Source: an uncultured Deinococcales bacterium
Lineage (GTDB): Bacteria > Deinococcota > Deinococci > Deinococcales > JAAFIG01
Direction: 5' to 3'
Assembly (NCBI GenBank): GCA_964247135.1
Contig: CAXTTL010000043.1
Span: 1-26,114, forward strand
DNA: 26,114 bases
Positions 1-25,480 of the stretch are shown here, piece by piece (the first letter of the stretch is position 1; each line of letters opens with the position of its first letter). The translations under genes and the position numbers were made by a program. The notes under the pieces are model-generated. The model saw nothing but the letters and a program-made list of their open reading frames with translations. It was not told the DNA's origin and ran no database searches.

Positions 1-1158
1 TTTAACAACTGGTCTTCAGATGCCGAGATTGGGGCGCTCAACGTGGTGCGCAATGCCTTCCAAGCCCAGGGTGGCAAATGGACGGACATCACCATTGCCC
101 ACGACACGGGCGCGAGCATTCCACTGATCAACATGTTGACCGGCGGCAACCCGCCCGATGTGTTCATCGAAAGCAACGCTGGCTTGCGGCGCGAACTCTT
201 CAAGCAAGGTTTGCTGAACGATTTTACCGCCTATTACAACTCGCTGAAAGTGGACAAGTACATTCCACCAGCCGTCAAAGACGCCATGATGGTCGATGGC
301 AAGGTGCTCAGTGCGCCCTTGGCAATTCATATCGTCGGCACGGTGTTCTGGAACATTGCGGCGGCGAAAAAAGCGGGCGTCAACCCCAAAGCCTGGAAGA
401 GTATGGACGACATGTTCGGCGACTTTGCCAAGATCAGAAAAGCCGGCATCATCCCGCTGGCAATCGGGGCGCAAAAATGGCAACTCGAGTATTTGCTCGG
501 CTCAATGATGGTTGAAGTCTCGGGCAGCCTGTACGACGATATTTGCGGTTTAAACCCCAAGAAAGCCTCGATTGATTCCAAAGACATGCGCCAAGCGCTG
601 GCATACTTCCGCAGGATTCAAAAAGAAGCTGATCCAGGCAGCGCCAACCGCAACTGGAACGACACCACCGCCCTGGTCATGCGCGGCGATGCCCTGATGC
701 AACTGCACGGCGACTGGATGAAAGGCGAATTCCTGGCAGCCAAAAAGAAGCTCGGCGTCGATTTTGACACCATGCTCGTGCCCGGCGCGGCTGGCGTGCA
801 AGTGACCGTGGACGAGGAAACCTTTTTGAAGCCAGCCAACGAAACCAAAAAGAACTCCATCGAAGCCCTGTTTAAAATCATGCTCACCAAAAGCATCACC
901 GAGAATTTCAGCGTGATCAAAGGCAGCACCCCAGTTCGGCTCGACGCCACCAAAGGCATTGACAAGCACGCCAAACTGGTGCTCGCCGCCCTGAAAAGAC
1001 CAGGCTTTGGACACCCAGTCAAAAACATCACGATGGATCAAGATTGGTCTGGCGCTTTTGCAGACTTGGCGGATGCCTTCTGGAACACGCCAGAAATGAC
1101 CGCCGATCAGTTTATTTCACAAGCCCAAAGTAAGTTTGACGAGGTGTTCAAGAAGTAA
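1..1158 (+). CDS. Sugar ABC transporter substrate-binding protein (family 1, glucose/mannose GtsA-like), 5'-truncated by the window edge
   Basis: Frame is open from position 1 (FNNWSSDAEIGAL...) to TAA at 1156-1158. Motifs GGNPPD, NWNDTTALV and ALMQLHGDWMKGEF resemble glucose-binding SBPs. Confidence 0.88.
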   Translation, partial: FNNWSSDAEIGALNVVRNAFQAQGGKWTDITIAHDTGASIPLINMLTGGNPPDVFIESNAGLRRELFKQGLLNDFTAYYNSLKVDKYIPPAVKDAMMVDGKVLSAPLAIHIVGTVFWNIAAAKKAGVNPKAWKSMDDMFGDFAKIRKAGIIPLAIGAQKWQLEYLLGSMMVEVSGSLYDDICGLNPKKASIDSKDMRQALAYFRRIQKEADPGSANRNWNDTTALVMRGDALMQLHGDWMKGEFLAAKKKLGVDFDTMLVPGAAGVQVTVDEETFLKPANETKKNSIEALFKIMLTKSITENFSVIKGSTPVRLDATKGIDKHAKLVLAALKRPGFGHPVKNITMDQDWSGAFADLADAFWNTPEMTADQFISQAQSKFDEVFKK

Positions 1159-1180
1159 GCTCGAGTATCGCAGTATTTCT

Positions 1181-1220
1181 CCTCTCATCCCCGACCCTTC
1201 TCTCCCAGGAGAGAAGGGAG
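1181..1220. repeat. REP-like GA/CT-rich hairpin, possibly an mRNA-stabilising stem after the SBP gene
   Basis: CCCTTCTCTCC (1195-1205) - CA - GGAGAGAAGGG (1208-1218), preceded by CCTCTCATCCCCGA. It resembles the widespread CCCTCTCCC..GGGAGAGGG dispersed repeats. Confidence 0.6.
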
Positions 1221-1267
1221 TTTGGGTACGATATTGATTCGTGAAATTTAGGTTTTCAGCCGTCACT

Positions 1268-1293
1268 AAGGGCGCAGCAAGCAGCGCCCCTAC
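1268..1293 (-). repeat. GTAG-type REP element
   Basis: Minus strand reads GTAG-GGGCGC-TGCTTGCT-GCGCCC-TT, a GTAG tetranucleotide followed by a GC-rich imperfect palindrome. Confidence 0.6.
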
Positions 1294-1392
1294 AGCTTCA
1301 AAATACATGACAGACGCAAATTAGCAAAAACATTCTGACTATTGAAATCAAGAAATTATTTTGAATCCAATTTTTGCGAACAGGAGAACGAC

Positions 1393-2847
1393 ATGACGAA
1401 CAAAACTGGGGCTTTTGACGTGGTGTGCGATGTGGGAACAGAGCGTCTTCCTGGCAGCACGGTCTATGACGTGCAAACGCAGACATACACGATCACAGGC
1501 AGCGGCAACAACATTTGGGGACTCGAGGATGAATTTCAGTTTGCGGCTTTGAAAATCTCGAGCAATTTGATCCTGACCGTGCAGGCTGGGTTTTTGGGAG
1601 AGGGCAAAAACCCGCACCGCAAGTGGGGCATCATGTTCAGACAGGGTCTCGAGGGTGATGCGGTTCATGCGAACGTGGTGGTGCACGGCGACGGGTTGAC
1701 TTCTTTGCAATACCGCCCAACAAAAGGCGCTGAGACGCTCGAGATCAAAGCCGCGCTTACCACCGCAGATGTGGTGCAACTCGAGCGCTCTGGGAATGAC
1801 ATCATCATGCGGGCGGCAAAATTTGGTGAAGCCCTGATCGAAACTGGACGCATTCAAATTGGATTCTCGAGCGAGATTTACGCAGGGTTGTTTGTTTGCT
1901 CGCACGAAATTGATGTTCTCGAGACCGCCGTTTTTAAGAATTTTCGGCTTGATGTTCCCGCCGCCATTGGGATTGACGGCTACCAACAGACTTCACCAAG
2001 CCGTCTCGAGTTGCTCGAGGTGGAAACTGGCAACCGCAGCATCATTTACTCGAGCACCGCGCATTTTGAGGCGCCCAATTGGTCTCGAGATGGCAAGTAT
2101 TTGCTGTACAACCAGGAGGGCAAAATCTATAAATTTTCGCTCGAGACAAAACAACCCGAATTGCTCAACACGGGCAATGTGACGGCGAACAACAACGACC
2201 ACGGCATCTCGTTTGACGGCACAAAACTTGCCCTCTCAAGCCACACCACGCAGGATGGCAGAAAAGCGGGATCGCAAATTTATGTGGTCGATATTGCTGG
2301 CGGCGAACCCGTCAAAGTCACCGATGATGCGCCGTCGTATTGGCACGGTTGGTCGCCCGATGGCAAGACGCTGGTGTACTGCGCCGAACGGGATGGCAGT
2401 TACGACATTTACGCGATTCCCTCGAGCGGCGGGGCGGAAACCCGCCTGACCGCCTCGCAAGGACTTGACGATGGTCCAGAATTCAGCCCAGATGACAAGT
2501 TTATTTATTTCAATTCGACCCGCACTGGGCAAATGAAAATCTGGCGCATGAAACCAGACGGCAGCGAGCAAGAGCAAGTCAGTTTTGGCAACGGCAACGA
2601 CTGGTTCGCGCATCCCTCACCCGACGGCACACGAATGCTGTACGTCTCGTATCGGCTCAGTGTGCCAGCCGCCAGCCACCCGCACAACGAACGCGTGACC
2701 ATCGTTGAGCAGGAAATCTCGAGCGGCAAGGTGCGGGTTCTGGCGTACCTGTATGGCGGGCAGGGCACGTTAAACGTTGCTTCCTGGAGTCCCGACGGCA
2801 AGTTTGTGGCGTTTGTCTCGTATACTTACGGCGACCCATCAATTTAG
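1393..2847 (+). CDS. TolB-like (PD40-repeat beta-propeller) protein with an N-terminal beta-sandwich domain
   Basis: SD CAGGAG precedes ATG 1393. Repeats APNWSRDG, HGISFDG, HGWSPDG, GPEFSPDD, AHPSPDG and ASWSPDG are present. No signal peptide is evident. Confidence 0.85.
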   Translation: MTNKTGAFDVVCDVGTERLPGSTVYDVQTQTYTITGSGNNIWGLEDEFQFAALKISSNLILTVQAGFLGEGKNPHRKWGIMFRQGLEGDAVHANVVVHGDGLTSLQYRPTKGAETLEIKAALTTADVVQLERSGNDIIMRAAKFGEALIETGRIQIGFSSEIYAGLFVCSHEIDVLETAVFKNFRLDVPAAIGIDGYQQTSPSRLELLEVETGNRSIIYSSTAHFEAPNWSRDGKYLLYNQEGKIYKFSLETKQPELLNTGNVTANNNDHGISFDGTKLALSSHTTQDGRKAGSQIYVVDIAGGEPVKVTDDAPSYWHGWSPDGKTLVYCAERDGSYDIYAIPSSGGAETRLTASQGLDDGPEFSPDDKFIYFNSTRTGQMKIWRMKPDGSEQEQVSFGNGNDWFAHPSPDGTRMLYVSYRLSVPAASHPHNERVTIVEQEISSGKVRVLAYLYGGQGTLNVASWSPDGKFVAFVSYTYGDPSI

Positions 2848-2853
2848 GAAAAC

Positions 2854-3798
2854 ATGCCTGACCTGAGAGCCAAACTCGAGCAATCGCCGCTGGGCATGGG
2901 TGGGTCTTTTTACGGTCTGGATCACGCCAAACTCGAGGGTGAACCAGACATTTTGGCGGCATGGGAAACCGCATTTGAACTTGGCATTAACCATTTTGAT
3001 ACCGCCACGGGGTACGGCGACGGTTATTCCGAACGCCTGCTGGGTCGGTTTATGGCGGGCAAGCGCGAGCAGATTTTTCTGGCATCCAAAGCCGATCTGG
3101 ACATTACCAGCAGCCAAGCGATCTTGGAAGCCATCGATGCCAGCCTCGAGCGTCTGCAAACCGATGTGATCGACCTGTACTACCTGCACTGGTCCCGAAC
3201 CGGTAAAGACATGCGCCCTTGGATGACCGGACTCGAGGCGGCGCGGCAACAGGGCAAAATTCGTTTTGTTGGGGTCAGCAATTTTTCAGTCTCGCAGATG
3301 GAACAACTCTCCGAGGTCGGGCAGATTGACGCCTGTCAAATGGGGTACAACCTGTTGTGGCGTTTTAACGAGCGCGACATTTTGCCGTACTGCCGCCAGC
3401 ACAACATTGCCGTGATCGCCTACAGCGCCTTGGCGCACGGGATTTTGTCGGGCAAATACCCCAGAGCACTCGAGTTTGCCCCAAACGATCAACGCTGGAG
3501 CATTCGGCTGTTCAAACCTGACGCCTGGGCGCAGGTTTTTGAGGCTGTGAAAAATTTCAAACAACTTGCCTCTTCGGAAAACCTGGCACTCTCGCATTTG
3601 GCGTTGCGCTGGTTGTTGCATCAAGCCGATGTTGCCTCGGTATTGGTCAGCAGCAAAAACAAACAACAGGTGCTCGAGAATCAAAAAGCACTTGCCCTCG
3701 AGATTCCAGACCGTGTCTTTGCTGAACTGACCACCCTCAGCGACCACCTGATCCAAGCCATTCCCGACGACAGAGACCTCTTTGGGTATCAACCCTAG
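2854..3798 (+). CDS. Aldo/keto reductase
   Basis: GINHFDTATGYG, ASK, SLERLQTDVIDLYYLHW, GKIRFVGVSNF and AYSALAHGILSGK give the AKR catalytic D/Y/K/H residues. Confidence 0.95.
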   Translation: MPDLRAKLEQSPLGMGGSFYGLDHAKLEGEPDILAAWETAFELGINHFDTATGYGDGYSERLLGRFMAGKREQIFLASKADLDITSSQAILEAIDASLERLQTDVIDLYYLHWSRTGKDMRPWMTGLEAARQQGKIRFVGVSNFSVSQMEQLSEVGQIDACQMGYNLLWRFNERDILPYCRQHNIAVIAYSALAHGILSGKYPRALEFAPNDQRWSIRLFKPDAWAQVFEAVKNFKQLASSENLALSHLALRWLLHQADVASVLVSSKNKQQVLENQKALALEIPDRVFAELTTLSDHLIQAIPDDRDLFGYQP

Positions 3799-3811
3799 AA
3801 TTGGAGCGAAC

Positions 3812-4774
3812 ATGCCAGACTCGAGCCTTCCAGACCAAAGCATTTTTCAGATTTGCGTGATCGTCGATGACCTGGAGCGGTACGGCGAAAATTACCGCAA
3901 AATACTTGGCTTTGACGTGCCGAGCGAGGTTCAAACCACGCACACTTTTGAGCACACGCAGGCACAATATTTCGGACAACCGATGAACGCTCGAGCCAAA
4001 ATTGTCAGCTTTATGCTGGGCAACGTCGCATTCGAGTTGCTGCAACCGCTCGACGAGGGCAGTGTTTGGATGGATTACCTGAAACAACACGGCGCGGGAA
4101 TTCATCACATTGCGTTCAACGTGCCGCGCATCGCGCCTGCCGCCGCGTTTTTTGCCGACCACGGTTACCAGGTCATCCAGCAGGGTTTGTTCACGGGACG
4201 CACGGGCATGTACGCCTACCTGAACACCGACAAAGACTTGGGTCTGACCACCGAATTGCTCGAGCATTACCAAAACACCACTCGAGCCACCACACCAATA
4301 TTCTCGAGCGACAGAGGCATTGGCACGAACGTTGTAATTCAAGTTGGAATTGTGACCAACGACATTGCGGCGATGGCAAAGCGTTATCAAGAGGTCTTGG
4401 GTTTACCCAAACCAAGCACGCAAGAAACTCCAGGCTATCAGATCACCGAAGCCAGATTCAACGGCGCACCAACCGAAGCCACAGCCAAACTCGCCTTTTT
4501 TGATTTTGGGCAAGCGCAACTCGAGTTGATCCAACCCGACCAGATTCCCAGCGTTTGGCGCAACGACCTGAATGCCTTTGGCGACGGCACACACCACATT
4601 GCCTTTAAAGTTGAAAGCACCCAAAAAGCCGTGGCTCACTTTGCCAAACACGGCATCGAGGTGAGTCAACAAGGCTATTACGGTGATCGCAGCGGCATGT
4701 ACACCTATATGGGCAGCCAGACTGCGCTTGGGGTTGTGATTGAACTGCTCGAGAATTTTCCCGAACCCCGCTAA
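3812..4774 (+). CDS. Tandem two-module VOC-family protein (methylmalonyl-CoA epimerase/glyoxalase-like)
   Basis: SD GGAG precedes ATG 3812. The two homologous halves each carry Q(I/V)-EL(L/I)QP-HHIAF-ELLE metal-ligand motifs. Confidence 0.88.
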   Translation: MPDSSLPDQSIFQICVIVDDLERYGENYRKILGFDVPSEVQTTHTFEHTQAQYFGQPMNARAKIVSFMLGNVAFELLQPLDEGSVWMDYLKQHGAGIHHIAFNVPRIAPAAAFFADHGYQVIQQGLFTGRTGMYAYLNTDKDLGLTTELLEHYQNTTRATTPIFSSDRGIGTNVVIQVGIVTNDIAAMAKRYQEVLGLPKPSTQETPGYQITEARFNGAPTEATAKLAFFDFGQAQLELIQPDQIPSVWRNDLNAFGDGTHHIAFKVESTQKAVAHFAKHGIEVSQQGYYGDRSGMYTYMGSQTALGVVIELLENFPEPR

Positions 4775-4786
4775 ACCAGGAGGCTT

Positions 4787-5116
4787 ATGAAATGGATTAC
4801 AAGGGAAAAAGTCAAGGTTGATCGTGTCGCCTGCCCGTGGTTGATTGCCAAATTCGTGGACCAAGACGCCGATTTTTTGTTCGTTCCAAACGATCAAATC
4901 ATGGCGGTGGCGGCACTAGAGAATGCGATTCCTTACGATGTCAAGGATGTCGAACTCGGGCTTCACGGGCAGGAGTGTAGTTTTGACGCGATTTGCCGCA
5001 AGTACAACTTGTGGGAAAAAGACGCTGCACTGGTGCGGCTGGTAAAAAATATCAATAGTGCAGACACCGACAACGCGCTCTGGAATCAACCCGAGGCGAT
5101 TCCCAATTCAAAATAA
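4787..5116 (+). pseudogene. Chromate-resistance ChrB-type domain protein, apparently C-terminally truncated
   Basis: SD AGGAGG. MKWITREKVKVDRVACPWLI..F.D..A.FLFVP and CSFDAI are family motifs. The ORF stops a few residues after 'QPE', before the usual C-terminal helices. Confidence 0.65.
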
Positions 5117-5140
5117 CCTTTGGTTTGTTGCTTTGGGAGA

Positions 5141-5177
5141 GATGAAGCTTGGTAAAATACCAAGCTTCATCTTTTTT
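5141..5177 (+). terminator. Intrinsic terminator between convergent genes, possibly bidirectional
   Basis: Perfect 14-bp stem GATGAAGCTTGGTA-AAA-TACCAAGCTTCATC followed by TTTTTT. Confidence 0.85.
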
Positions 5178-5187
5178 GCCGCTCGAG

Positions 5188-6684
<1,497 letters not shown>

Positions 6685-6733
6685 GGGTGCTCGGGGGTTG
6701 GTCTTGGCGGGCGTTGGAATGGGGTCGCTGACG

Positions 6734-7498
6734 TTATTCGTTGGCGATCACCACTTCGGGTCCACGTTGGCGCAGGGTGGCGCGGGTGCTGGCGTCCAGG
6801 CGGTTGTCGGTGATGACGCAGTGAAGTTCGCGGAAGGCGGCGACCCGCAGCATGGCTTGCGAATCCCATTTCGAGGCATCCAGCAGCAGTGCCACCCAGG
6901 TGGCGTGTCCGAGCGCGGCGCGTTTGATGTCAATTTCGGGCAGGTGCTTGTCGGAAATGCCAAACTCGAGGTTGGCGGCGGAGGCGGACAGAAAGCAGCG
7001 GTCAAACCTCGAGGATTCGATGAAGCGCAGGGCTTGTTGTCCGGTCACGACGCCGGTGTTGCGGTAGAGTTCGCCGCCGAGTTGAACCACGGTGATCTCG
7101 TCGCAGATCAGGGCGCTCGAGATTGTGACGGCGTTGGTGACGATGCGCAGTTGTTTGAAGTCGCGGCGCTTGATGGCGAGTGCCAGCTCGAGCATGGTGC
7201 TGCCGGCGTCCAGGAAAATGGTTTCGCCGTCGCGGATGTGGTCGGCGGCGGCTTCGGCGATGGCGCGTTTTTCGGTGATGTTCAGGCTGCTGCGGGCTTG
7301 GCTGGGGGCTTCGCTGCGGTGGACAATTCGGGCGCCGCCATGCACGCGTTTGACCTTGCCGTCGCGGGCGAGGCTTGCCAGGTCGCGGCGCACGGTCATT
7401 TCGCTGACGCCCAGGTCGGTTGCCAGCAGGCTGTTGGTGCGAAAACCGTGGGTTTCGAGCAGGTTGAGGATTCGTTCGATGCGTTGATCGGCAAGCAT
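6734..7498 (-). CDS. DeoR/GlpR-family transcriptional regulator
   Basis: AAGGA SD precedes ATG at 7498. HTH motif LGVSEMTVRRDL..L, then RVHGGA, EKRAIA, IFLDAGST, VTN and DASKW. Confidence 0.95.
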   Translation of the reverse strand: MLADQRIERILNLLETHGFRTNSLLATDLGVSEMTVRRDLASLARDGKVKRVHGGARIVHRSEAPSQARSSLNITEKRAIAEAAADHIRDGETIFLDAGSTMLELALAIKRRDFKQLRIVTNAVTISSALICDEITVVQLGGELYRNTGVVTGQQALRFIESSRFDRCFLSASAANLEFGISDKHLPEIDIKRAALGHATWVALLLDASKWDSQAMLRVAAFRELHCVITDNRLDASTRATLRQRGPEVVIANE

Positions 7499-7629
7499 GG
7501 TTTGGTGTCCTTGTTTGTGCGTTTGTGTTGTTATCTTGGTTGGTGTTTGATGATTTGGGACTTTTTTTAGAGTATACCGAATTGGGCGAGCCTGCATTTG
7601 GCGTGTTTGTGACCATCAATCACAAAGGC

Positions 7630-7658
7630 TTGACAATTGTTTGAATTTGAGTTACTTT
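7630..7658 (+). promoter_or_regulatory. Sigma-70-type promoter for the RbsACB-like operon
   Basis: TTGACA (7630-7635), 17-bp spacer, TACTTT (7653-7658). Confidence 0.7.
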
Positions 7659-7695
7659 TGTCGCATCTTGTTTAACTCTGTTTGAAATTGTTTGA
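7638..7695 (+). promoter_or_regulatory. Candidate DeoR operator: phased TGTTT(G/A)A direct repeats
   Basis: TGTTTGA 7638, TGTTTAA 7669, TGTTTGA 7679 and TGTTTGA 7689, with exact 10-bp spacing for the last three. Another TGTTTGA lies at 7544. Confidence 0.65.
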
Positions 7696-7861
7696 ATCAC
7701 CAGTCGGCGTTCATGTCTGCAACTTGGACAGCTTCACCTTGACCACCCGAGGGGATGCCCCTCGAGCGGCGGTGTCAACTTCACTTTTTAAAGTCCAAAT
7801 TTTGGGGATGCCGCCCAATTCAAGACCCAAACCAGCCAGATCAGGGCACCAGAAAGGGATC

Positions 7862-11724: not shown

Positions 11725-11829
11725 GCATGTCTCGAGAGGGCAGCGTCAAGGCAAACTCGAGGTGGTGAATGTGGGATTTATTGCTCAGTATCGGCATTGT
11801 GATCTGGTCACTTATGTTGCACGTCCTTT

Positions 11830-11956: not shown

Positions 11957-12088
11957 ACGTTCAAATCATATGGCAACAATACGGTGGCAGTATTTAAGTA
12001 CCTCGAGAAACCCTAAGAAGACTGGCTTCCGTTCAGCCATGCCCTTTTAAAGCATGTCCGAATATTTTTGAACACCGTCGCTCGAGCC

Positions 12089-12832: not shown

Positions 12833-13959
12833 CGTGCTCCCCTGGTTTTTTTGGCGTCATGCTCGAGCATCCTGTCCACAAAACGGGCTTGGGGAATGGT
12901 GATGATGACGAACAAAAACGCGACGATGGTGACGGTGGAGAGGTTAAAGTAATTGCTGGCGAGCATTTTGGATTGGTTGAACGCGTCAATCGTACCGATG
13001 ACGTTGACCAAAGCGGTGTCTTTTTGCAAGCCAATAAAGTCGTTCAACAGCGGTGGGATGATGCGCCGAATGGCTTGCGGCACAATCACAAAACGCATGG
13101 TTTGGGTGAACGAAAGCCCCAAGCTTCGCGCGGCGGCAAACTGGCTGGGGTGAATGCTCTCGATGCCGGCGCGGTAGACCTCGGCGACGTATGCGCCGTA
13201 AGTTAAGGTCAGGGCGATGATTGCCCAGAGGGTGGTCAGGTCGTCGATGCCAAATTTGGCTTGCAAAAAAGAACTGATGCCGTCGGTCAAACCCGTGAGC
13301 GGCAAACCGAAACCTACCAGGTAAATCGTAATGATGCTCGGCAAACCGCGAAAGGCATCGGTGTACAAGGTCGCCAGCAAACGAATCGGCTGCCCTGCGC
13401 GACCTGGAATCATGCGGGCAATCGCCACAACCAGCGCCCAGACCAAAATCAAAACCTCGGCGATGCAAAAAATAATCACGTTGGTCATGAAGGCTTTCAA
13501 GACCAGACCGAACTTATCAATAATCAATGACATTTTAAAAAACGTGCTGCCCACCGCAACATCGTTGGTGATCAAAAACCAAACCCCAAGCGCGGTCAAC
13601 ACCGCAAACACGCCGTAACCGAGCGCGAACCAACTCGAGCTTTGGGCGCTGGCGGTCCGAACTCGAGCGGTGATCAAATCGTTTTGGCGCAGTGCAGATT
13701 GGGCTTCTCTGGCTTCGCGCACCCCTCGGATGGCGGGAACGAACAACGCCAACGGAATCAAGCCCACCAGCACCATGATCGCGTCGAACAAACCAGAAGC
13801 AATTTTGTTTTTCTCAAGCGTGAAGCGTAAAAATTGCAGCACCGCCCAGCAAATCAGTACAGTTAAAGCGCACAAACCCACTGCCAGCAAGGAAAACGGC
13901 AGCACGTTTGGTGGTATTGAAGGTTTGCGAAAACGCGACGCTCGAGCCGAGTCATTCAT
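12829..13959 (-). CDS. Polar amino-acid ABC transporter permease with extra N-terminal TM helices (start at 13959 or 13986)
   Basis: FRGLP, AYVAEVYRAGIESI, QFAAARSLG, PQAIRRIIPPL.NDFIGLQKDTAL. 4-nt overlap with the ATPase gene. Confidence 0.93.
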   Translation of the reverse strand: MNDSARASRFRKPSIPPNVLPFSLLAVGLCALTVLICWAVLQFLRFTLEKNKIASGLFDAIMVLVGLIPLALFVPAIRGVREAREAQSALRQNDLITARVRTASAQSSSWFALGYGVFAVLTALGVWFLITNDVAVGSTFFKMSLIIDKFGLVLKAFMTNVIIFCIAEVLILVWALVVAIARMIPGRAGQPIRLLATLYTDAFRGLPSIITIYLVGFGLPLTGLTDGISSFLQAKFGIDDLTTLWAIIALTLTYGAYVAEVYRAGIESIHPSQFAAARSLGLSFTQTMRFVIVPQAIRRIIPPLLNDFIGLQKDTALVNVIGTIDAFNQSKMLASNYFNLSTVTIVAFLFVIITIPQARFVDRMLEHDAKKTRGAR

Positions 13960-14057
13960 GCTGACCCGCCCGGAGCTGAAGATCATTCGGTTTTAGGGTC
14001 TTCATGTTGCCAAGAGTTTTACCATGAATTGAATCATGCCATCAAAACTCGAGCATC

Positions 14058-14093
14058 AAAAACCCCCAATCCGATCACTCGAGATTGGGGGTT
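14058..14093 (-). terminator. Terminator-like hairpin between the SBP and permease genes
   Basis: Minus strand reads AACCCCCAATC-11 nt-GATTGGGGGTT-TTT. CTCGAG 14078-14083 lies at the stem-loop junction. Confidence 0.75.
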
Positions 14094-14114
14094 GTCCTCA
14101 TTGCCAATTGCTTC

Positions 14115-14963
14115 TTACGGACGGAAGTACTTGATCGCCATTGGGTCGATGTTCATGTATTTCGCCACGAGTTTGCGCACGGTTGAATCTTTGATCAGGG
14201 TTTCGATGACTTTGTTAATCGCCTTATTGTTGGCATTGCCCTTCGGGAACAACGCACCGTAAGCCTCACCGGTTTTGTACTGGGCAACCACTTCAAATTT
14301 GCCGTTTGATTGTCTGGCTTGCGCCATCAAAATTGAGGTGTCGGTCATGGCAAGGTCAATCTGACCCGCTTGCAGGGCAGCGAACATGCTTGGGGTGTCG
14401 GGGAAAACCTTGACCTTGGCAATTTTTAAGGTTTTATTGGCGAACGAGTCGCCGGTGGTGCCCTGTTGCACGCCCCAACGCAAACCTTTGATGCTTTTCT
14501 CGTCCACTTTCTTGCCTTTTTTGACCATGATGCCGGCGTCGCTGGTAAAGTACGGCGTGCTGAACTCCACAACCTTTTGGCGTTCTTTGGTGATCGAAAT
14601 TTGCGAAAGCGCCAAATCGAAATCCTTGGTTTGACCCGCCACCAGACCATCCCAAGCCACGTTTTTGACCACCAGTTTCTCGAGTCCCAAACGGTGCGCG
14701 ATGTTGGCGGCAAAGCAGTACTCAACACCGTCTTTGATGGTTTCTGGCGTGTCGCCATTGTACCAACCTGGAGCCGGCAAGTTGACTTCGACAGTCAATT
14801 GACCCGCCACGGCTGGCGTGAACTTGGCAGGATCACCCATTTTGCCCGTGACCGCGCAATTGCCGTACTTGGAAGCCGCCATTGCGTCCTGGGCGCTCGA
14901 GAGACCCAAACCTATGGCAGTCACCGCTGCCAAACCCAAAGCCATTAACACTTTCGTTTTCAT
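14115..14963 (-). CDS. Polar amino-acid ABC transporter substrate-binding protein (family 3)
   Basis: AGGAGG SD and signal peptide. Motifs WDGLVAG, FDLALSQISITKERQKVVEFSTPYF, GVQQGTT and LQAGQID. Confidence 0.95.
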   Translation of the reverse strand: MKTKVLMALGLAAVTAIGLGLSSAQDAMAASKYGNCAVTGKMGDPAKFTPAVAGQLTVEVNLPAPGWYNGDTPETIKDGVEYCFAANIAHRLGLEKLVVKNVAWDGLVAGQTKDFDLALSQISITKERQKVVEFSTPYFTSDAGIMVKKGKKVDEKSIKGLRWGVQQGTTGDSFANKTLKIAKVKVFPDTPSMFAALQAGQIDLAMTDTSILMAQARQSNGKFEVVAQYKTGEAYGALFPKGNANNKAINKVIETLIKDSTVRKLVAKYMNIDPMAIKYFRP

Positions 14964-15106
14964 GTCATTCCTCCTGTAGAAACTGCCCGCTCAGGATACT
15001 CGGATTCTCGAGCGGGCGCAATCAAGTACGTAAAGCTTGAGATACAAGCTCGAGTAGGGTTCGCCATACGCACGGTTGAAGACGTGCGCAACTCGAGTTG
15101 TAGGTT

Positions 15107-16204
15107 TTATTCTTGTTGCAGTGCGTTCGAGAGCAACGTATGAAAGTGATGCACGCCCTGCTCCCGTTTGGGGCTGAAGCGCCCCGTGTTGTAAAACCGT
15201 GATTTGACCCCGCGTTGCACCGCTTCGACAATCACTTCATCCTCGCGCTCAACGCGGTCAAGCCTCGCACCTGCGCCCTGCCCGTATTTTTTGGCATCCC
15301 AGACGTACTGAATAAAACTGACTTTGGTCAGTTCTTGCCCAAGTGGGCGCACGACGTTGATGCTGACGCCCCAAGGGTAAAAGTTAAACATCAGGTTCGG
15401 GAAGACCCAGAAATAATAGGCGGCAATCCGTTTGCCGTAATCTGGACTTTCTGGCGGCAGATCAAACACCAGATCATCACCGCCAGCAGGCGCGAGTTGC
15501 AAATTGCAATGTGAAAAAATTTCGGAGCTGTAATTTTCGTAATCGATCAGCGAATTTAAGCTGGCATGAACGAACGGAATGTGAAACCCCTCGAGGTAAT
15601 TGTCGCAGTACAGCGCCCAGTTGGCTTGAATCAAGTAATCGCGTCCGTAATCAGGCTCGAGCAAGAAGTCTTGCAGCGGCAACCATCCCAGGCGGTCATT
15701 GATGGGTTTCATGACCTCTTCAAAGCTCACGCTTGGGTCTAGGCTCGAGAATAAGAACTTGCCTTTGCCCCAGGTGGCAAAGGGTACTTTTGCCAGGTTG
15801 TCGCTGGGGCTGGGGAAGTTTTTGGCTTGCTCGAACTCGGGCATGGCTTGAAAGCAACCGTCCAAGCCGTAACGCCGCCCGTGGTAGCGGCAGCGCAAGA
15901 AACGGTCGTTGCCGCCCGTTTCGGCAACCAACATGCTGCGGTGGGTGCAAACGTTACTTAAAACATGAAGTTCGTCGTTGAAGTCCCTGGTGGCGAGCAA
16001 AGGCTCGTCGAGGCAACCCTCGAGCAGCGTGAACGGCGCGACAGAACCTGGGGCTTTAAGGTGGTCGGTGTCGCCAACAAATTGCCAGGAACGGGCAAAA
16101 ACTTTTTCTCTCACCAGTTCAAAAGTGCTTGGGTCTTTGTAAAAACTGGCGGGCAGCGTGCTGGCGGCGGTGATATCGGGGTTAACGGCAAAACGGTTTG
16201 ACAT
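15107..16204 (-). CDS. Rieske non-heme iron oxygenase alpha subunit (choline monooxygenase-like)
   Basis: GGAGGT SD precedes ATG 16204. Rieske ligands NVCTHR...CRYHG, mononuclear Fe motif DNYLEGFHIPFVH...ED, plus FPNLMFN and EQGVHHFH. Confidence 0.93.
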   Translation of the reverse strand: MSNRFAVNPDITAASTLPASFYKDPSTFELVREKVFARSWQFVGDTDHLKAPGSVAPFTLLEGCLDEPLLATRDFNDELHVLSNVCTHRSMLVAETGGNDRFLRCRYHGRRYGLDGCFQAMPEFEQAKNFPSPSDNLAKVPFATWGKGKFLFSSLDPSVSFEEVMKPINDRLGWLPLQDFLLEPDYGRDYLIQANWALYCDNYLEGFHIPFVHASLNSLIDYENYSSEIFSHCNLQLAPAGGDDLVFDLPPESPDYGKRIAAYYFWVFPNLMFNFYPWGVSINVVRPLGQELTKVSFIQYVWDAKKYGQGAGARLDRVEREDEVIVEAVQRGVKSRFYNTGRFSPKREQGVHHFHTLLSNALQQE

Positions 16205-16442
16205 GGCAAAACCTCCAAATGAAAGAAGCTCGAGAAGCGTTGACGGTTTTTCAGTCCGGTCAGCGTGCCACGAAACCATTTGGCAGCAAATCCAAACCCC
16301 AAGATTGATGCGGGCTGTGCCGTTCACAAAATGGCAGGTTTTGATTGTTCATTGCCATCCTTGAGTTGCTGTTTTGATTCTACTCGAGTGATTTGAGAAT
16401 GTCTTGTCAAACTCGAGATTCAAGAAATTTTTCTCAGTGGTT

Positions 16443-16796
16443 TCAGGTATTTGCAGGCATTTCATTGCCAGTTGCATATTCTGTAAACTGTCTTTTGTAA
16501 GGCGCGTGAAAACCCACCACAATTCTATTTTTTGGAATTCCTTGATCGCATAAAGCCTGCACAATGTTAACATCGGTGTTATCACGTTGTACCCAAACAA
16601 AATCACCTTTGATGTCAATATGCACCACAACTCCATGGGTGCGATGCAATTCGTCCCAGCCGACATTGAGCATCAGATAATGACCGTTGCGATCATCCAT
16701 GACCACTTGTTCTTCAATTTTTTCATGCGCTTCTCTTGGTTGCGTCAGTTGCTCGAAAACCCGATGAACCGCCAATTGCGTTTTGGTTAAAGCCAT
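16443..16796 (-). CDS. xisI: XisI-family protein
   Basis: DDRNGHYLMLNVGWD..R.HG.VVHIDIKG..VW.Q.DNT...GIPKNRIVVGFH.PYKRQFTEYA. Overlaps the xisH stop. Confidence 0.93.
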   Translation of the reverse strand: MALTKTQLAVHRVFEQLTQPREAHEKIEEQVVMDDRNGHYLMLNVGWDELHRTHGVVVHIDIKGDFVWVQRDNTDVNIVQALCDQGIPKNRIVVGFHAPYKRQFTEYATGNEMPANT

Positions 16797-17200
16797 TTCT
16801 CGATCACCTCTGCCATTGGATTGTAGACCAAAAGCGCGATTTTGTATTGTGCTACGAGTTCCTGAGTCAGTCTTTCTTGAAAAAATGTTTCAAAAGTATC
16901 AAGCGGCACGGCAAGGTATAAAACCCGTTCTGGCTCAATATTTGAAAGCATCAGTTTGTACGTCAAAAACTGTCCAAGTGCTGTGTGAAATTCGTAAGTA
17001 TCAGATTCGGCAATAAAGCTTTTAATCTCGACTGCAATAAATTGGTCATCACGTTCAGCAGCAATCAAACGCTCTGCACCAAGATCAACGTAATATGTTT
17101 TCTCTTCGTATCTTAACTTCAATGGGTCTTTGTTAACATTCCAGCCGTCTTTTTCAAGAGCACGTTTGACCGCGTTGTGAAAAACATCCTTTTTCGGCAT
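16787..17200 (-). CDS. xisH: XisH-family protein (PD-(D/E)xK nuclease-like fold)
   Basis: KDVFHNAVKRALEKDGW..DPL..YVDLGAERLIAAER..IAVEIKSF..FHTALGQF..EPERVLYLAVP. Confidence 0.95.
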   Translation of the reverse strand: MPKKDVFHNAVKRALEKDGWNVNKDPLKLRYEEKTYYVDLGAERLIAAERDDQFIAVEIKSFIAESDTYEFHTALGQFLTYKLMLSNIEPERVLYLAVPLDTFETFFQERLTQELVAQYKIALLVYNPMAEVIEKWL

Positions 17201-17227
17201 GACAATATTTTACTCGACACTCGAGGT

Positions 17228-19276
17228 TCAAGAAACCTTGCTCAGTTGCTTGATGTCTTTCAATGAGGTCATTGCCACGGTGTTGTTGGTTTCTTCGCCC
17301 GCGCCACTGAATTGCGCGGCGTATAACCTCGAATACGCTCCTCGAGCCGCCAGCAATTGCTCGTGCGTGCCTTGTTCGACAATCTGCCCAGCTTCCATCA
17401 CCAGAATCAAATCGGCATCGCGGATGGTTGAAAGGCGGTGCGCGATCACAAAACTGGTGCGGTCCGAACGCAGCGCATTCATGGCTTTTTGCACCAACAA
17501 CTCTGTGCGGGTGTCCACCGAGGAGGTCGCCTCGTCCAGGATCAGCAAATCGGGGTTTGAAAGAAATGCTCGAGCGATGGTCAGCAGTTGCTTTTCGCCC
17601 GCGCTGATGTTGCTGGCTTCATCGTCCAAACGGGTTTGATAACCATCTGGCAGGGCGTGAACAAAACGATCCACAAAGGTCGCTCGAGCCGCCGCCATCA
17701 CCTCGGCTTCGGTTGCGTCAGGTTTGCCGTAAGCGAGGTTTTCAAAAATTGTCCCAGCGAACAACCAGGTGTCTTGCAAGACCATGCCGATTTTTGATCG
17801 CAAGTCTTTGCGAGCCATTTCGGTGATGTTGACCCCGTCGAGTGTGATGCGCCCAGCGCTCAGTTCGTAAAAACGCATGATCAGGTTGACCAGTGTGGTT
17901 TTTCCTGCGCCCGTCGGACCGACAATCGCCACGGTCTGCCCTGGTTGAACCGATAAATTCAGGTGTTGGATCAGCGGTTTGGCAGGGTCATACGAAAAAC
18001 TGACATCCTCGAAACGCACTTGACCGCGCACGCCAACGTTCGTGGCGGCTCGAGTTTGGCTGGTGTCAGGATTTTGCTCGGTGGCATCGAGCACTTGAAA
18101 CACGCGCTCTGCCGAGGCGACACCAGATTGCAATAGATTTGCCATCGAAGCCATCTGTGTTAAGGGTTGTGTGAATTGTCTCGAGTATTGAATGAAGGCT
18201 TGAACGCCACCGATGGTCATGGCGCCGGAAGCGACCCGCAAACCGCCAACCACGGCGATGGCGACGTAATTGAGATTTCCCAAAAAGGTCATGGCGGGCA
18301 TGATGATACCCGAAATAAATTGCGCCCCGAACGCCGCGCCGAACAGGTCATCGTTTTTGATTTTGAAGGTCGCGTCCGCCTCGCGTTGACGCCCAAACAC
18401 CTTGACCAGACCGTGACCGGTAAAGGTCTCTTCGATCAAACCGTTTAACTCGCCAGTGTTACGCCATTGTTTGACAAATAGCTTTTGTGATCTCGAGGCG
18501 ATACCGCCAGCCAGCACCATTGACAGCGGAATCGTGACCAGCGCGATCAGTGCCAGCAACCACGAGATGCTGAACATCATGCCGACCATCGCAATGACGG
18601 TCAAGAAAGAAACCATCAATTGCGAGAGCGTCTGCTGCAAACTCGTGCCGACGTTGTCCACATCGTTGGTGACACGACTGAGCAACTCACCTCGAGGTTG
18701 ACCGTCGATGTAGGGCAGCGGCAAGGTGTTGAGTTTTTGCGCGACATCGGCGCGAAGTTTGTACACCGTGGATTGAATCACGCCCGCCAGCAGATAGCCG
18801 GACAGCCATTGCAGCGCCGCCGAAATCAGGTACAAACCCATCGCCAGCAGCAAGACTTGACCCAAGGCATTCATGTCGATGCCCTTTCCAGGCACAATGT
18901 CCATGCCCTGAAGCACATCGGCGATTCTGGTTTGACCCGAAGCCCGCATTCCTGCCAGCACCGATTCTTTGGTCGCGCCAGCGGGCAGTTTTCCGCCAAT
19001 AAACCCAGAAAAAATCAGATCGGTGGCGCGACCCAAAATCTTTGGACCGACCGAGGTCATGACCACGCTCGAGATTGAGAGCACCAACACCAAAACCACT
19101 TGCGCCCGGTAAGGGGCAAGCCTTGCCAGCAATCGCCGCGCCGACGGACCGAAGTTGCTGGCTTTCTCGGCGGGAGCGCCCATCTGCATGAACGGACCAC
19201 GGCGCACGGCTGCCGGACCGCGACGTGCCTCGGCGGCGCGTTCCTCTTCGCTGCGAACACCTTCACCACGACTCAT
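17228..19276 (-). CDS. ABC exporter fused TMD-NBD subunit with consensus catalytic site (TM288-like)
   Basis: GELLSRVTNDVDN, GPTGAGKTT, ISAGEKQL, LDEATSSVD and IAHRLST. Confidence 0.95.
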   Translation of the reverse strand: MSRGEGVRSEEERAAEARRGPAAVRRGPFMQMGAPAEKASNFGPSARRLLARLAPYRAQVVLVLVLSISSVVMTSVGPKILGRATDLIFSGFIGGKLPAGATKESVLAGMRASGQTRIADVLQGMDIVPGKGIDMNALGQVLLLAMGLYLISAALQWLSGYLLAGVIQSTVYKLRADVAQKLNTLPLPYIDGQPRGELLSRVTNDVDNVGTSLQQTLSQLMVSFLTVIAMVGMMFSISWLLALIALVTIPLSMVLAGGIASRSQKLFVKQWRNTGELNGLIEETFTGHGLVKVFGRQREADATFKIKNDDLFGAAFGAQFISGIIMPAMTFLGNLNYVAIAVVGGLRVASGAMTIGGVQAFIQYSRQFTQPLTQMASMANLLQSGVASAERVFQVLDATEQNPDTSQTRAATNVGVRGQVRFEDVSFSYDPAKPLIQHLNLSVQPGQTVAIVGPTGAGKTTLVNLIMRFYELSAGRITLDGVNITEMARKDLRSKIGMVLQDTWLFAGTIFENLAYGKPDATEAEVMAAARATFVDRFVHALPDGYQTRLDDEASNISAGEKQLLTIARAFLSNPDLLILDEATSSVDTRTELLVQKAMNALRSDRTSFVIAHRLSTIRDADLILVMEAGQIVEQGTHEQLLAARGAYSRLYAAQFSGAGEETNNTVAMTSLKDIKQLSKVS

Positions 19277-21012
19277 GCCGCCACCTCCTCTTGCTCGGCG
19301 GCGCGTTGCGAGAGCACGATTTCTTGATAGGTCGTACAGCTTTTCAAGAGTTCACCGTGCGTGCCCTGACCGACCACCTTGCCCGCCTCGAGCACCACAA
19401 TATGCTCGGCATCGACAATGGTGGACACGCGCTGCGCCACCACGATCACCACCGCATCTCGAGTCACAGGTTTTAAGGCGCTGCGCAACCTCGCGTCGGT
19501 GGAGAGATCAAGCGCTGAGAACGCGTCGTCGAACAAATAAACCTCGGGTTTGCGCACCACGGCTCGAGCGATGGCGAGGCGTTGGCGTTGACCGCCTGAA
19601 ACGTTCGAGCCGCCCTGCGAGATGCTCGAGTCCAGACCACCCATTTCGGTCACAAAATCCTTGGCTTGGGCAATCGCTAGTGCGTCCCAGAGTTCGGTAT
19701 CCGTGGCGTCGGGCTTGCCGTAACGCAGGTTGCTGGCAACCGTCCCAGAGAACAAAAACGGTTTTTGCGGAATCAAACCAATTCGCGCCCAGAGCGTCTC
19801 GAGTTCGATGTCGCGCACGTCAACGTTGCCAAAACGCACCGAACCGCTCGAGGCGTCAAACAGGCGCGGGATCAGGTTGATCAAGCTCGTTTTGCCCGCG
19901 CCGGTGCTGCCGATGATCGCGGTGGTCTGCCCAGGTTTTGCGGTCAGCGAAATGTGTTGCAAGACCGCAATTTCGGCACCAGGGTACTGGAACGAGACAT
20001 CGCGCAACTCGAGGCTGGCAGATGCGGGAAGTTTGAGGATTGGATTGCTCGACGGAATGACTGAAGATTCGGTATCGAGCACCTCCGCGATGCGCTCTGC
20101 CGAAACCGAGGCTCGAGGAATCATCATGGACATGAAGGTCGCCATCATGACCGCGATGAGAATTTGCATCAGGTACGCCATGAACGCCGTGAGCGCCCCA
20201 ACCTGCATTTGCCCCGATTCGACTCGAGCCGCGCCAAACCACAAGACCGCCACGGTTGAGGCATTTAGAATGATCGTGACAATCGGGAAAATCATGGCTT
20301 GCAACCTTCCAACCGCCAATGCCGTACCGGTCAAGGTCGCGTTGGCATCGGCAAAGCGTGCGGTTTCAAAATCTTCGCGCACGAACGCCCGAACCACACG
20401 AATGCCCGTGATCTGCTCGCGCAAGACGCGGTTCACGCCGTCGATGGCATTTTGCATGATCCTGAATTGCGGCAACATGCGTTGAATCACCAAGCCGACC
20501 GCGATAATCAAAATCGGTACGGACACGCCGACCAACCACGACATCGAAACGTCTTGGCGCAGTGCCATGATGATGCCGCCGACCATCGAAATTGGCGCGG
20601 AAACCATCAGCGCCAGCGCCATGAACATCAAGGTTTGAACTTGTGTGACATCGTTGGTGCTGCGCGAAATCAAGGTGGGCGCACCAAATTTGGTGACCTC
20701 TCGAGCCGAGAACGTGCCGACGTGATGGTAAATTGCAGCCCGTAAATCGCGTCCGAGACTCATCGACGCTCGAGCGCTGAGGTAAACCGCCGCAATGGTC
20801 GCGGCGATTTGCAGCAAGGTCACCAGCAACATCCAAGCGCCAGTTTGCAAAATATAATTGGTGTCGCCTTTGGACACGCCATTGTCGATGATGTCGGCGT
20901 TCAGGGTCGGCAGGTACAAAGCGGCAATCGTGGCAACCAATTGCAGCCCCACCACCCCTGCCAGTCCGACCCTGTACGGCACCGAAAACTGCCTGAGCAA
21001 GCGTAAAAGCAT
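19273..21012 (-). CDS. ABC exporter fused TMD-NBD subunit with degenerate site (TM287-like), heterodimer partner
   Basis: GSTGAGKT and VSGGQRQR. Walker B reads FDDAFSALD (E to D) and the switch reads AQR (H to Q). 4-nt overlap with its partner. Confidence 0.95.
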   Translation of the reverse strand: MLLRLLRQFSVPYRVGLAGVVGLQLVATIAALYLPTLNADIIDNGVSKGDTNYILQTGAWMLLVTLLQIAATIAAVYLSARASMSLGRDLRAAIYHHVGTFSAREVTKFGAPTLISRSTNDVTQVQTLMFMALALMVSAPISMVGGIIMALRQDVSMSWLVGVSVPILIIAVGLVIQRMLPQFRIMQNAIDGVNRVLREQITGIRVVRAFVREDFETARFADANATLTGTALAVGRLQAMIFPIVTIILNASTVAVLWFGAARVESGQMQVGALTAFMAYLMQILIAVMMATFMSMMIPRASVSAERIAEVLDTESSVIPSSNPILKLPASASLELRDVSFQYPGAEIAVLQHISLTAKPGQTTAIIGSTGAGKTSLINLIPRLFDASSGSVRFGNVDVRDIELETLWARIGLIPQKPFLFSGTVASNLRYGKPDATDTELWDALAIAQAKDFVTEMGGLDSSISQGGSNVSGGQRQRLAIARAVVRKPEVYLFDDAFSALDLSTDARLRSALKPVTRDAVVIVVAQRVSTIVDAEHIVVLEAGKVVGQGTHGELLKSCTTYQEIVLSQRAAEQEEVAA

Positions 21013-21139
21013 AAATGTCCTTTCAAGACTCGAGTTGAATGACCGAGTTCCGCAAACGGTAGCATATCAAAGTTTGTGTGAATGTCTGATGCGCCATTTG
21101 ACTGATCTGGCTCGAGAAAATGTTGCGTAAACTAAAACC

Positions 21140-21667
21140 ATGCCACAGTTTGAAATGACCAGCCGTGACGTGCTCGAGTTTTTAGCACTGACCCAAGCGC
21201 ACGGTATTGAAATTTGGATTGATGGCGGTTGGAGTGTAGATGCGCTCTTGCAACGTCAAACCCGAGTTCACAGCGACCTGGACATTGCCCTTTATCACCA
21301 AGACGTTCCCAAACTCCGCGCACTGCTCGAGGCTCGAGGGTTTAAAGACGTGCCCAGGGACGACACCAGAGATTGCAATTTTGTGCTGGGAGATGACTTT
21401 GGGCATCAAATTGATTTTCATTCGTTTGTGTTTGACGCCGAAGACAAGATTATTTTTGGTGTCCCGTATCCTCGAGAATCGCTCACGGGAATAGGTTCAA
21501 TCAATGGTTTTCAGGTGAAATGTATTTCGCCTGAATGGTTGGTGAAATTTCACACGGGTTACGAGGTAGACATTGACGATTACCGCGACGTGCTGGCGTT
21601 GTGTGAACATTTTGGGTTTGAATTGCCGCTCGAGTTTGAAAAGTTTAAGCAAAAAATCTTGAAATAA
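21140..21667 (+). CDS. Lincosamide nucleotidyltransferase / aminoglycoside-2''-adenylyltransferase-like protein
   Basis: WIDGGWSVDALL..QTR.HSDLD, IDFH, and CISPEWLVKFHTGYE.D..DYRDV.AL. Confidence 0.85.
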   Translation: MPQFEMTSRDVLEFLALTQAHGIEIWIDGGWSVDALLQRQTRVHSDLDIALYHQDVPKLRALLEARGFKDVPRDDTRDCNFVLGDDFGHQIDFHSFVFDAEDKIIFGVPYPRESLTGIGSINGFQVKCISPEWLVKFHTGYEVDIDDYRDVLALCEHFGFELPLEFEKFKQKILK

Positions 21668-21681
21668 ACTCGAGTTTATTT
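21662..21681. repeat. Perfect 20-bp palindrome spanning two convergent stop codons
   Basis: AAATAAACTCGAGTTTATTT. Confidence 0.95.
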
Positions 21682-25479: not shown

Positions 25480-25480
25480 G

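Follow-up and report, generated by a model that had tools for sequence, protein, structure and literature searches.

Hyper-iterated palindromes have remained a puzzle for about three decades, and work on HIP1 has been confined almost entirely to cyanobacteria, where deletions ending in HIP1 copies are known from Synechococcus. HIP1 (GCGATCGC) and the alternate palindromes of cyanobacteria are described as short palindromes that are over-represented tens of times, occur in coding and non-coding DNA, are conserved and are found lineage-wide (Elhai 2015, PMC4390886; Xu et al. 2018, PMC5861425). HIP1 reportedly acts in a Chi-like manner to increase transformation and recombination (bioRxiv 10.1101/2024.09.10.611283) and has been proposed as an uptake sequence (PMC13756078); in the parts of Xu et al. 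(2018) available to us, the first 10 bases after stops are set aside and no link of HIP1 to promoters is made. No report of a stop-codon register, or of an overlap with -10 boxes, was found for HIP1 in the portions of the literature at hand. Here we analyse the palindrome CTCGAG and its position relative to stop codons, starting from contig C43 (26,114 bp, referred to as the window) of G000, a metagenome-assembled genome (MAG; 5.09 Mb in 386 contigs, 84% complete, 52.7% G+C) of an uncultured Deinococcales bacterium. The association between stop codons and CTCGAG is a real, modest and partly explained bias.

The window contains 143 copies of CTCGAG, where 4.66 are expected from shuffled sequence. 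Across G000, to which all counts refer unless stated otherwise, the word occurs 33,925 times, compared to 3,272 for the runner-up palindromic hexamer and 989 for the median hexamer, with one copy per 153 bp of coding and one per 139 bp of intergenic DNA. This density of about 1 per 150 bp is presumably higher than that of HIP1. CTCGAG spells 77% of Leu-Glu dipeptides (17,252/22,377) and, in frame 1, is present in 44% of the eligible [Ser/Pro/Thr/Ala]-Arg-[Gxx] tripeptides (4,038/9,131). The Leu-Glu dipeptide is itself ~2.4x commoner in coding sequence than expected from the abundance of the two residues (22,377 vs about 9,300); hence, the word has reshaped protein sequences. Downstream of stops, the exact word is found 42 times per position, while all 18 one-off variants summed amount to 19. 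When compared with G005, one of six assemblies from the same genus (G000-G005), CTCGAG is conserved at 0.69-0.83 in coding and 0.74 in intergenic DNA, in contrast to 0.42-0.46 for other hexamers. A proxy word (AACTCGAGTT) is present in G000 and in 60-464 copies in each of the 18 other family genomes, with 0-8 copies in 12 sister-family genomes. CTCGAG thus combines over-representation, coding and non-coding presence, conservation above controls and lineage-wide occurrence, and is the hyper-iterated, HIP-like palindrome found throughout this family of uncultured Deinococcales, whose genomes have a strong and pervasive tendency to form and retain it. It is not HIP1 proper, the cyanobacterial word that goes with the DmtA/DmtC methylases, as GCGATCGC has just 2 copies in G000 and the closest named records to the window are 'Deinococcales bacterium' MAGs, not cyanobacteria.

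In contrast to CTCGAG, a number of other palindromes are strongly avoided: GAGCTC is absent, while GGGCCC (1 copy), GGGCTC (4), CGTACG (5), GAGCCC (6), GGATCC (7), CCGCGG (11), CAGCTG (15), GCATGC (17) and GGCC (380) are rare, as is GCGATCGC. A 0.8-Mb sample of G009, from another genus of the family, is likewise poor in GAGCTC (2) and GGCC (17). This avoidance suggests many restriction systems, past or present. A Pfam census of C5-methyltransferases identified such genes in G000 and 17 of the 18 other family genomes; none was found in G008 (91% complete). Vsr-type repair was considered as the source of the CTCGAG enrichment and rejected: no Vsr endonuclease (PF03852) was detected in any of the 19 family genomes searched, G000 included, and neither CTTGAG (1,442 copies) nor CTCAAG (1,436) falls below the median hexamer. 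A literature search found no published account of CTCGAG as a highly iterated palindrome, and none of the word in Deinococcales among the titles listed; the terms CTCGAG, Deinococc and Vsr do not occur in the main text of Elhai 2015 (PMC4390886).

A first-pass annotation of the window had noted six stop codons with CTCGAG 0-2 nt downstream, and expected a metagene profile to reveal a peak just after stops if the association were general. Such a peak exists. Genes were called on G000 using a simple codon-usage ORF caller, yielding 4,398 genes (83.6% coding) with 4,327 usable gene ends, and offsets were counted as the nt between the stop codon and the first letter of CTCGAG (0 = abutting). CTCGAG was observed at offsets 0, 1, 2 and 3 in 31, 79, 205 and 60 cases respectively, with about 42-45 per position further downstream. 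The peak at offset 2 corresponds to about 4.5x the flanking intergenic density (Poisson P = 4.5e-67), and offsets 0-2 pooled account for 315 gene ends (7.3%). It is supported by TAA (116/2,169) and TGA (85/1,737), with TAG contributing only 4/421. The +2 peak is seen in every gene-arrangement class (3-7%) and is highest for converging genes 8-30 nt apart (27/174).

The peak is repeated within the genus. A 1.18-Mb sample of G005 has +2 copies at 31/977 gene ends vs 7.7 expected (P = 2e-10), with TAG again lacking (0/84). Two other genera of the same family, with similar CTCGAG density, show no significant +2 peak: 5/353 vs 3.0 expected in a 0.4-Mb sample of G011, and 7/703 vs 4.95 in the 0.8-Mb sample of G009 (pooled P = 0.11). 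One-off variants are also enriched at offset 2 (53 vs a background of 19, i.e. 2.8x) and are mostly transitions. Among 11 conserved gene ends for which G000 or G005 alone has the +2 copy, the other genome has a 1-2-off variant at this position in 4 cases and a spacer change of 1-8 nt in 3. The variants held at offset 2 therefore indicate turnover by point change at a kept position. The 205 +2 sites have no longer element in common, with nothing shared beyond about 20 nt around the word.

Several trivial sources of the peak were considered. A coincidental or artefactual origin, given one site per 150-180 bp together with ORF-calling errors or repeat families, might be suspected from the window, where 6/24 gene ends exceed the genome mean of 7.3% and two of the six adjacencies share one site. 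The genome-wide P value and the replication in G005 refute it as the sole explanation, stop positions are independent of the caller and no repeat family underlies the 205 sites; we attach next to no probability to this account. A repeat or mobile element inserting after stops was rejected for the same lack of a longer shared element, and because the 133 REP cores (GTAGGG[GT]GCG) lie at no fixed distance. Some REP hairpins (GTAGGGTGCGCT...) of that type do carry CTCGAG in the loop or centre. ATGA-type gene overlap was rejected because the TAA peak is as strong as that of TGA; two letters and a start codon follow the word at 17/205 sites, with 0 at a called gap of 10. A -10 box on the stop side fits offset 1 with TAA alone (TAAnCT), and such sites precede a start in 6/79 cases. 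Hairpins between neighbouring copies were dismissed as well, given that a second CTCGAG within about 25 nt was seen by eye in about 6 of the first 40 sites listed, which does not exceed the density expectation. Finally, no clear trend links the peak to recently acquired genes as judged by CTCGAG density inside the gene, the peak being slightly higher for fully ameliorated genes.

The position of the peak can be related to the sequence that flanks CTCGAG elsewhere. In the deep intergenic flanks of G000 and G005, G(-4), A(-3), A(-2) and G(-1) are favoured, while G at -3 is disfavoured. The preferences in G000 amount to 1.6x for A(-3), 1.5x for G(-1) and 1.26x for G(-4), with the same values in G005, while the A(-3) preference drops to about 1.2x in G011 and G009. 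Hence, the genera with the stop peak are those with the A(-3) flank preference. Frame-1 coding sites follow the same pattern, with A(-3) at 0.513 vs 0.357 for G, G(-4) at 0.52 vs about 0.39, and G(-1) at 0.519 vs 0.319 for A. As the preference is also present where the flanks are fixed by coding, the flanks influence whether the word forms or persists.

To obtain a context expectation, the rate of CTCGAG after each 5-mer was taken non-parametrically from offsets 10-100. The 5-mer context predicts 89.3 copies at offset 2 vs 205 observed, or 82.7 vs 160 if only true spacers are included, while at offsets 0, 1 and 3-6 observed counts are within 0.9-1.6x of the context expectation. TAA and TGA trinucleotides that are not stops are also enriched in CTCGAG at +2, albeit more weakly than at stops, and TAG is depleted. 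The TAG exception can be explained by TAG placing the disfavoured G at -3. Furthermore, TAG followed by a favoured AG or GG spacer would create GRGCYC, a word nearly absent from G000; none of the triplets GAG, GGG or GGC directly precedes CTCGAG in deep intergenic DNA of this genome. Flank context accounts for about half of the +2 peak and for the TAG exception.

On balance, we favour the reading that the stop pile-up is a real positional bias of the genus that arises largely as a by-product, rather than as a dedicated signal for gene junctions. According to this proposal, the word would arise or persist preferentially where G(-4) A(-3) N G(-1) precedes it, and in the mirror context. A TAA or TGA located two letters upstream would supply A at -3 (and TGA also G at -4), with selection holding the stop permanently in place. 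Two processes may contribute to the remaining ~twofold excess. A flank fixed by selection could display the preference undiluted, while free flanks would drift. In addition, break-and-join events or microhomology at the motif edges might keep the stop-nearest copy and replace what lies beyond, and the same break-and-join events could shrink the spacers between converging genes to a single CTCGAG. Such recombination or indel joints at motif edges probably make a contribution to the peak that is real but minor.

A mirror peak on the start side illustrates the same principle. CTCGAG is found at -8 from the start codon in 76-77 genes, vs about 35 per position. TA is present at -4/-3 of CTCGAG in 60/77 (78%) of the -8 copies, compared to 62/1,309 (5%) of other upstream copies. 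These 60 read TAnnCT-CGAGnn-ATG (TAnnCTCGAGnnATG), whereby a -10-like box shares CT with the word at the distance of a leaderless promoter and no Shine-Dalgarno sequence is present. This resembles the leaderless -10 box of Deinococcus, where TAnnnT stands a few bases ahead of an ATG that doubles as the transcript start (de Groot et al. 2014, PMC4007540); in Deinococcus deserti, leaderless transcripts account for 60% of all mRNAs according to the same study. The present case would be a predicted counterpart, and concerns the start rather than the stop side. The overlap logic would be as proposed at stops, with the word locked into register by sharing CT with the -10 box of predicted leaderless promoters. 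The -8 peak thus shows how overlap with a selected element locks CTCGAG into register.

A number of observations weigh against the by-product reading. TAA is 2.3-2.8x and TGA 1.5-1.9x above the context expectation, leaving a ~twofold excess. By the coding-frame measure TAA should fall below TGA, whereas it equals or exceeds it, and in frame 0 (which is near saturation) A at -3 performs no better than C or T. The stop-specific excess is limited to purine-first spacers (AA, AG, GG, GA and others), with none for TT, TC, CC or GC, a restriction that simple amplification by a fixed flank does not predict. The fixed-flank step is itself a back-of-envelope model. Finally, the underlying data consist of an incomplete MAG (84%) and a crude ORF caller that includes some false ORFs, with stops of real genes being exact and caller-independent.

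The excess might alternatively reflect density homeostasis, whereby the word is evenly spaced by selection or copy interference and the first free place after a motif-free ORF end is filled. Short-range repulsion between neighbouring copies is indeed observed: spacings <20 nt are depleted (1,355 vs about 3,020 expected from a geometric distribution), and very long gaps are also too few, with a coefficient of variation of 0.96. Where a gene has a +2 copy, its last coding copy is more distant (median 117 vs 78 nt, P = 6e-6), as is the next copy downstream (107 vs 66 nt, P = 1e-7), and positions 0-6 after stops are about 1.3x above the context expectation. Gap filling nevertheless should raise counts broadly across the first few tens of bases rather than produce a one-position spike, the neighbour effect equals the general short-range repulsion around any copy, and the absence of the peak in other genera of the same density is left without explanation. 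We therefore consider gap filling quite unlikely to be the cause of the peak.

The first-pass annotation had also raised the possibility that CTCGAG marks 3' ends. A functional signal selected for termination, RNA processing or ribosome release would fit the sharp, TAA/TGA-specific register and the persistence of copies at the same position through point changes. In contrast, +2 copies are conserved no better than intergenic CTCGAG in general (21/31 vs 614/826, G000 vs G005), and the peak is absent or insignificant in the two other genera that have the same word. Furthermore, a 6-nt palindrome is unable to fold on itself, and no longer shared element follows the +2 copies. Terminator-like hairpins occur at chance (31 vs 30.9, window 1-20000), the convincing ones being tens of bases beyond CTCGAG, and the stop-adjacent copies lack the G+C-rich hairpin and T-run of an intrinsic terminator at the site. 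The 3'-end claim is thus not supported, and we regard a selected signal of this type as very improbable.

The same annotation had suggested that CTCGAG is the crossover point by which gene blocks are shuffled, and that synteny breakpoints should coincide with it. To assess this, 691 orthologue pairs of G000 and G005 (673 usable) were used, and gene ends were classed according to whether any homology survives 14-260 nt past the stop. This DNA-level classification replaced a synteny test based on gene-neighbour orthology, which was rejected as too noisy given that many of its 'breaks' were gene-calling differences. Break ends have a +2 copy 2.5-2.8x more commonly than conserved ends (14/142 vs 20/515 in G000, p = 0.009; 9/142 vs 12/515 in G005, p = 0.027), and with spacers of at least 8 nt the figures are 10/98 vs 13/300 (p = 0.044). 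This classification is biased toward an association with breaks, because only a break at the stop-nearest CTCGAG removes all alignable spacer. Offsets 0-2 pooled do not differ significantly between break and conserved ends (18/142 vs 40/515, p = 0.09; 10/142 vs 25/515, p = 0.30). Anchored extension from the stop identified 117 true breaks, 85 of which lose homology within 0-4 nt, too short a distance for a whole CTCGAG. Nine of the 117 end 0-2 nt after a CTCGAG common to both genomes, corresponding to 9/32 of those with homology at least 5 nt past the stop.

Clean indels between G000 and G005 give a similar picture. For 59 such indels (118 boundaries), 7 have one boundary exactly at a motif edge, while about 0.8-1.2 are expected from density. 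An exact CTCGAG is present within the 11-nt boundary window in 9/59 (chance is 3.9% per boundary) and in none of the other 50. Two indels are motif-bounded on both sides (1,651 and 1,883 bp) with a single CTCGAG in the short allele, and visual inspection added a third of 1,044 bp, whose short allele has CTCCAG; gain or loss using the site on both sides, as expected for attC, is thus restricted to 2/59. In several one-sided indels the short allele contains unrelated filler (9-15 nt), which looks more like break-and-join than classic direct-repeat deletion. Converging genes 8-12 nt apart have CTCGAG in the spacer at 40/66 gene ends, with a bump in gap length at 9-10 nt, and such tiny spacers are what a motif-to-motif deletion between two stop-adjacent copies would leave. 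Two ~1.24-kb in-frame inserts at different places of the same conserved gene (G000:C49 about 11572-12813, G005:C7 about 50272-51538) were also observed; judging by their ends (...cacaac or ...cataat), our guess is that these are intein-like.

These data bear on the proposal that CTCGAG is a crossover or cut-and-rejoin point of gene blocks, with stop-adjacent copies as scars or boundaries, through an XhoI-like nuclease with religation or a Chi- or uptake-like signal. In its favour are the excess of boundaries at motif edges, the fully bounded indels, the breaks located just past a shared CTCGAG, the +2 enrichment at breaks, the converging genes joined by a single word, and three cases in the window (21669-21674 with 22452-22457, 1160-1165 and 16383-16388, see below). 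It would also fit the Chi-like and uptake proposals made for HIP1 (10.1101/2024.09.10.611283; PMC13756078). The crossover proposal does not explain the exact 2-nt distance from the stop, the majority of junctions do not involve the motif (50/59 indels without it at either boundary, 85/117 breaks too close to the stop) and 20 of the 34 +2 copies in G000 are at conserved junctions. The +2 association is partly built into the classification, with the pooled offsets not significant, and about half of the peak is accounted for by flanks. In addition, the +2 copy is commoner beside fully 'ameliorated' genes than beside genes with few motif-coded Leu-Glu dipeptides (5.6% vs 0-4%). By our estimate, some 15% of all pairs of identical hexamers within 2 kb are CTCGAG pairs, hence passive use of microhomology by mass action could account for the observed junction share. 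The shuffling claim is thus supported for a minority of junctions, namely those where a boundary falls exactly at a motif edge relative to a same-genus genome, and not for most; as the explanation of the stop pile-up we consider it doubtful. Bolder still is the notion that CTCGAG is an active break-and-rejoin site (via an XhoI-like nuclease or a HIP1-style Chi/uptake function), with the +2 copies as outer boundaries of exchangeable cassettes, in an integron-free shuffling that also trims converging spacers to a single word. To this we would assign only a small probability.

All six adjacencies noted in the window by the first-pass annotation were confirmed, at offsets 0-2, representing 6/24 gene ends and 5 distinct sites (Table 1). 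Each adjacent stop belongs to an ORF with a Pfam domain or to the locally best-scoring ORF. Among the ORFs called, 9642-10007 (-) is probably spurious; the true gene at that position is 9358-10476 (+), with the first downstream CTCGAG 11 nt past its stop. Compared to the genome mean of 7.3%, the window is enriched with a binomial P = 0.006, or 0.02 if counted as 5 independent sites. The clustering is thus partly local luck on top of a real bias.

Table 1 Stop-adjacent and boundary-associated CTCGAG sites and related features in the window.
Feature	Coordinates	Strand	Offset (nt)	Context
CTCGAG	1160-1165		1	TAA stop 1156-1158 (+) of solute-binding-protein gene 43-1158 (+)
CTCGAG	5182-5187		0	TAA stop 5188-5190 (-) of two-domain, sugar-type ABC ATPase gene 5188-6684
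CTCGAG	12081-12086		2	TGA stop 12089-12091 (-) of amino-acid ABC ATPase gene 12089-12832
CTCGAG	16383-16388			Left edge of segment 16389-17301, missing in G001
CTCGAG	17220-17225		2	TGA stop 17228-17230 (-) of ABC exporter gene 17228-19276; right edge of G000-specific XisH/XisI insert
CTCGAG	21669-21674		1 (from each stop)	Shared by two converging stops, 21665-21667 (+) and 21676-21678 (-)
Variable gene	21676-22497	-		No Pfam match; present in G000, absent in G001 and G002, 2.4-kb segment instead in G005
CTTGAG (one letter off)	22452-22457		2	Past TGA stop 22460-22462 (-) of HTH regulator gene; right boundary of same indel as 21669-21674; coordinates counted from sequence

Comparison of individual sites to relatives reveals varied histories. 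The shared site at 21669-21674 is the left boundary of a gene-sized indel: the short allele of G002 reads TGA-CTCGAG-G-TTA and joins the two outer genes, G001 reads TGA-CTCAAG-...-TCA, and G005 carries an exact CTCGAG at the position matching the right-hand CTTGAG. In these alignments the variable gene is a clean motif-bounded insertion or deletion. At 1160-1165, stop and CTCGAG are common to G000, G005 and G002 (offsets 1, 1 and 0), and homology to relatives breaks at the downstream edge; G005 has a ~75-nt extra insertion right after the word, and the high-scoring segment pairs of both G005 and G010 end at 1165. G001 matches the window up to and including the CTCGAG at 16383-16388 and then diverges, the short allele not being a clean motif-to-motif deletion. 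The missing segment carries the genes for XisI (16443-16796, PF08869) and XisH (16787-17200, PF08814). At its right edge, G001 and G005 lack the CTCGAG at 17220-17225 and the last few codons of the exporter gene differ.

The CTCGAG at 12081-12086 is at +2 in G000, G001, G003 and G004, with the neighbour in G004 differing from about 20 nt beyond, while G002 and G005 have another neighbour, lack the word and lose homology at the stop codon. The site at 5182-5187 lies between the stop and a hairpin followed by a T-run at about 5143-5178. A G000-specific insert at 24465-25483, containing an NAD-dependent epimerase/NmrA-like gene (24595-25479), speaks against the crossover proposal: it is flanked by an imperfect ~15-nt direct repeat (accNgcNaacataRg) and not by CTCGAG, and G002-G005 join its flanks with 13-18 nt.

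Other features of the window include REP-like repeats at 1177-1223 and 1259-1345, which recur on many contigs and in relatives. Genes 4787-5116 and 5188-6684 converge on the hairpin at 5143-5178 and its T-run; the hairpin is perfect (GATGAAGCTTGGTA...TACCAAGCTTCATC), contains two AAGCTT words and is likely an intrinsic terminator. The block 5188-11660 (a sugar ABC transporter and DeoR) has 65-79% identity to congeners vs 71-80% to another genus (G011), which suggests replacement by transfer or a paralogous cluster. Outside Deinococcales MAGs, the exporter gene 17228-19276 finds its next-best relatives among Actinomycetota (Arthrobacter and others), with up to 76% amino acid identity, a hint that the exporter pair (17228-21012) may have been horizontally acquired. 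The gene 21140-21667 matches Pfam Aminoglyc_resit (aminoglycoside-2''-adenylyltransferase family, E = 6.7e-25), here in an environmental Deinococcales MAG.

When compared to known systems of recombination, the stop-adjacent word shares some properties with each. DNA uptake sequences (Neisseria DUS, Haemophilus USS) and Chi are also over-represented short words tied to the recombination of incoming DNA, and DUS and USS are often located just downstream of genes. DUS and USS are asymmetric 8-12-mers at about 1 per kb that often occur as inverted pairs forming terminators, and Chi is orientation-biased, whereas CTCGAG is palindromic, 6 bp long and present once per 150 bp. Integron cassettes have a recombination site (attC) right after the stop and are gained or lost as gene-sized units, which can be compared to the gene at 21676-22497. 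However, attC sites are long imperfect inverted repeats used by the IntI integrase in an array, while here a 6-bp word is involved, no array was seen (no integrase or recombinase search was made) and about 12% of indels touch the word. In microhomology-mediated and homology-facilitated illegitimate recombination of transformable bacteria, joints are made at short stretches of shared bases; the most abundant hexamer should be the one used most, and the single copy left in motif-bounded short alleles is in agreement with this. Several junctions with one boundary at a CTCGAG edge and 9-15 nt of filler differ from this type, in lacking a classic direct-repeat scar.

The closest counterpart remains HIP1, from which CTCGAG differs in being another word, of six letters rather than eight, in another phylum. 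The Deinococcales family is apparently a second, independent case of a hyper-iterated palindrome. Our analysis adds to this puzzle a genus-specific flank preference, a fixed register at TAA/TGA (+2) and at the -10 box, and about 12% of indels with a boundary at the word. Flank preference and fixed register together favour a sequence-reading enzyme or binding protein with a wider footprint that differs between genera. The minority of indels at CTCGAG means that the 'recombination joint' idea, also raised for HIP1, can be put directly to the test by comparing genomes of a single genus. Should the word turn out to have an active rather than passive role at junctions, it would constitute a new way for bacteria to exchange gene-sized blocks.

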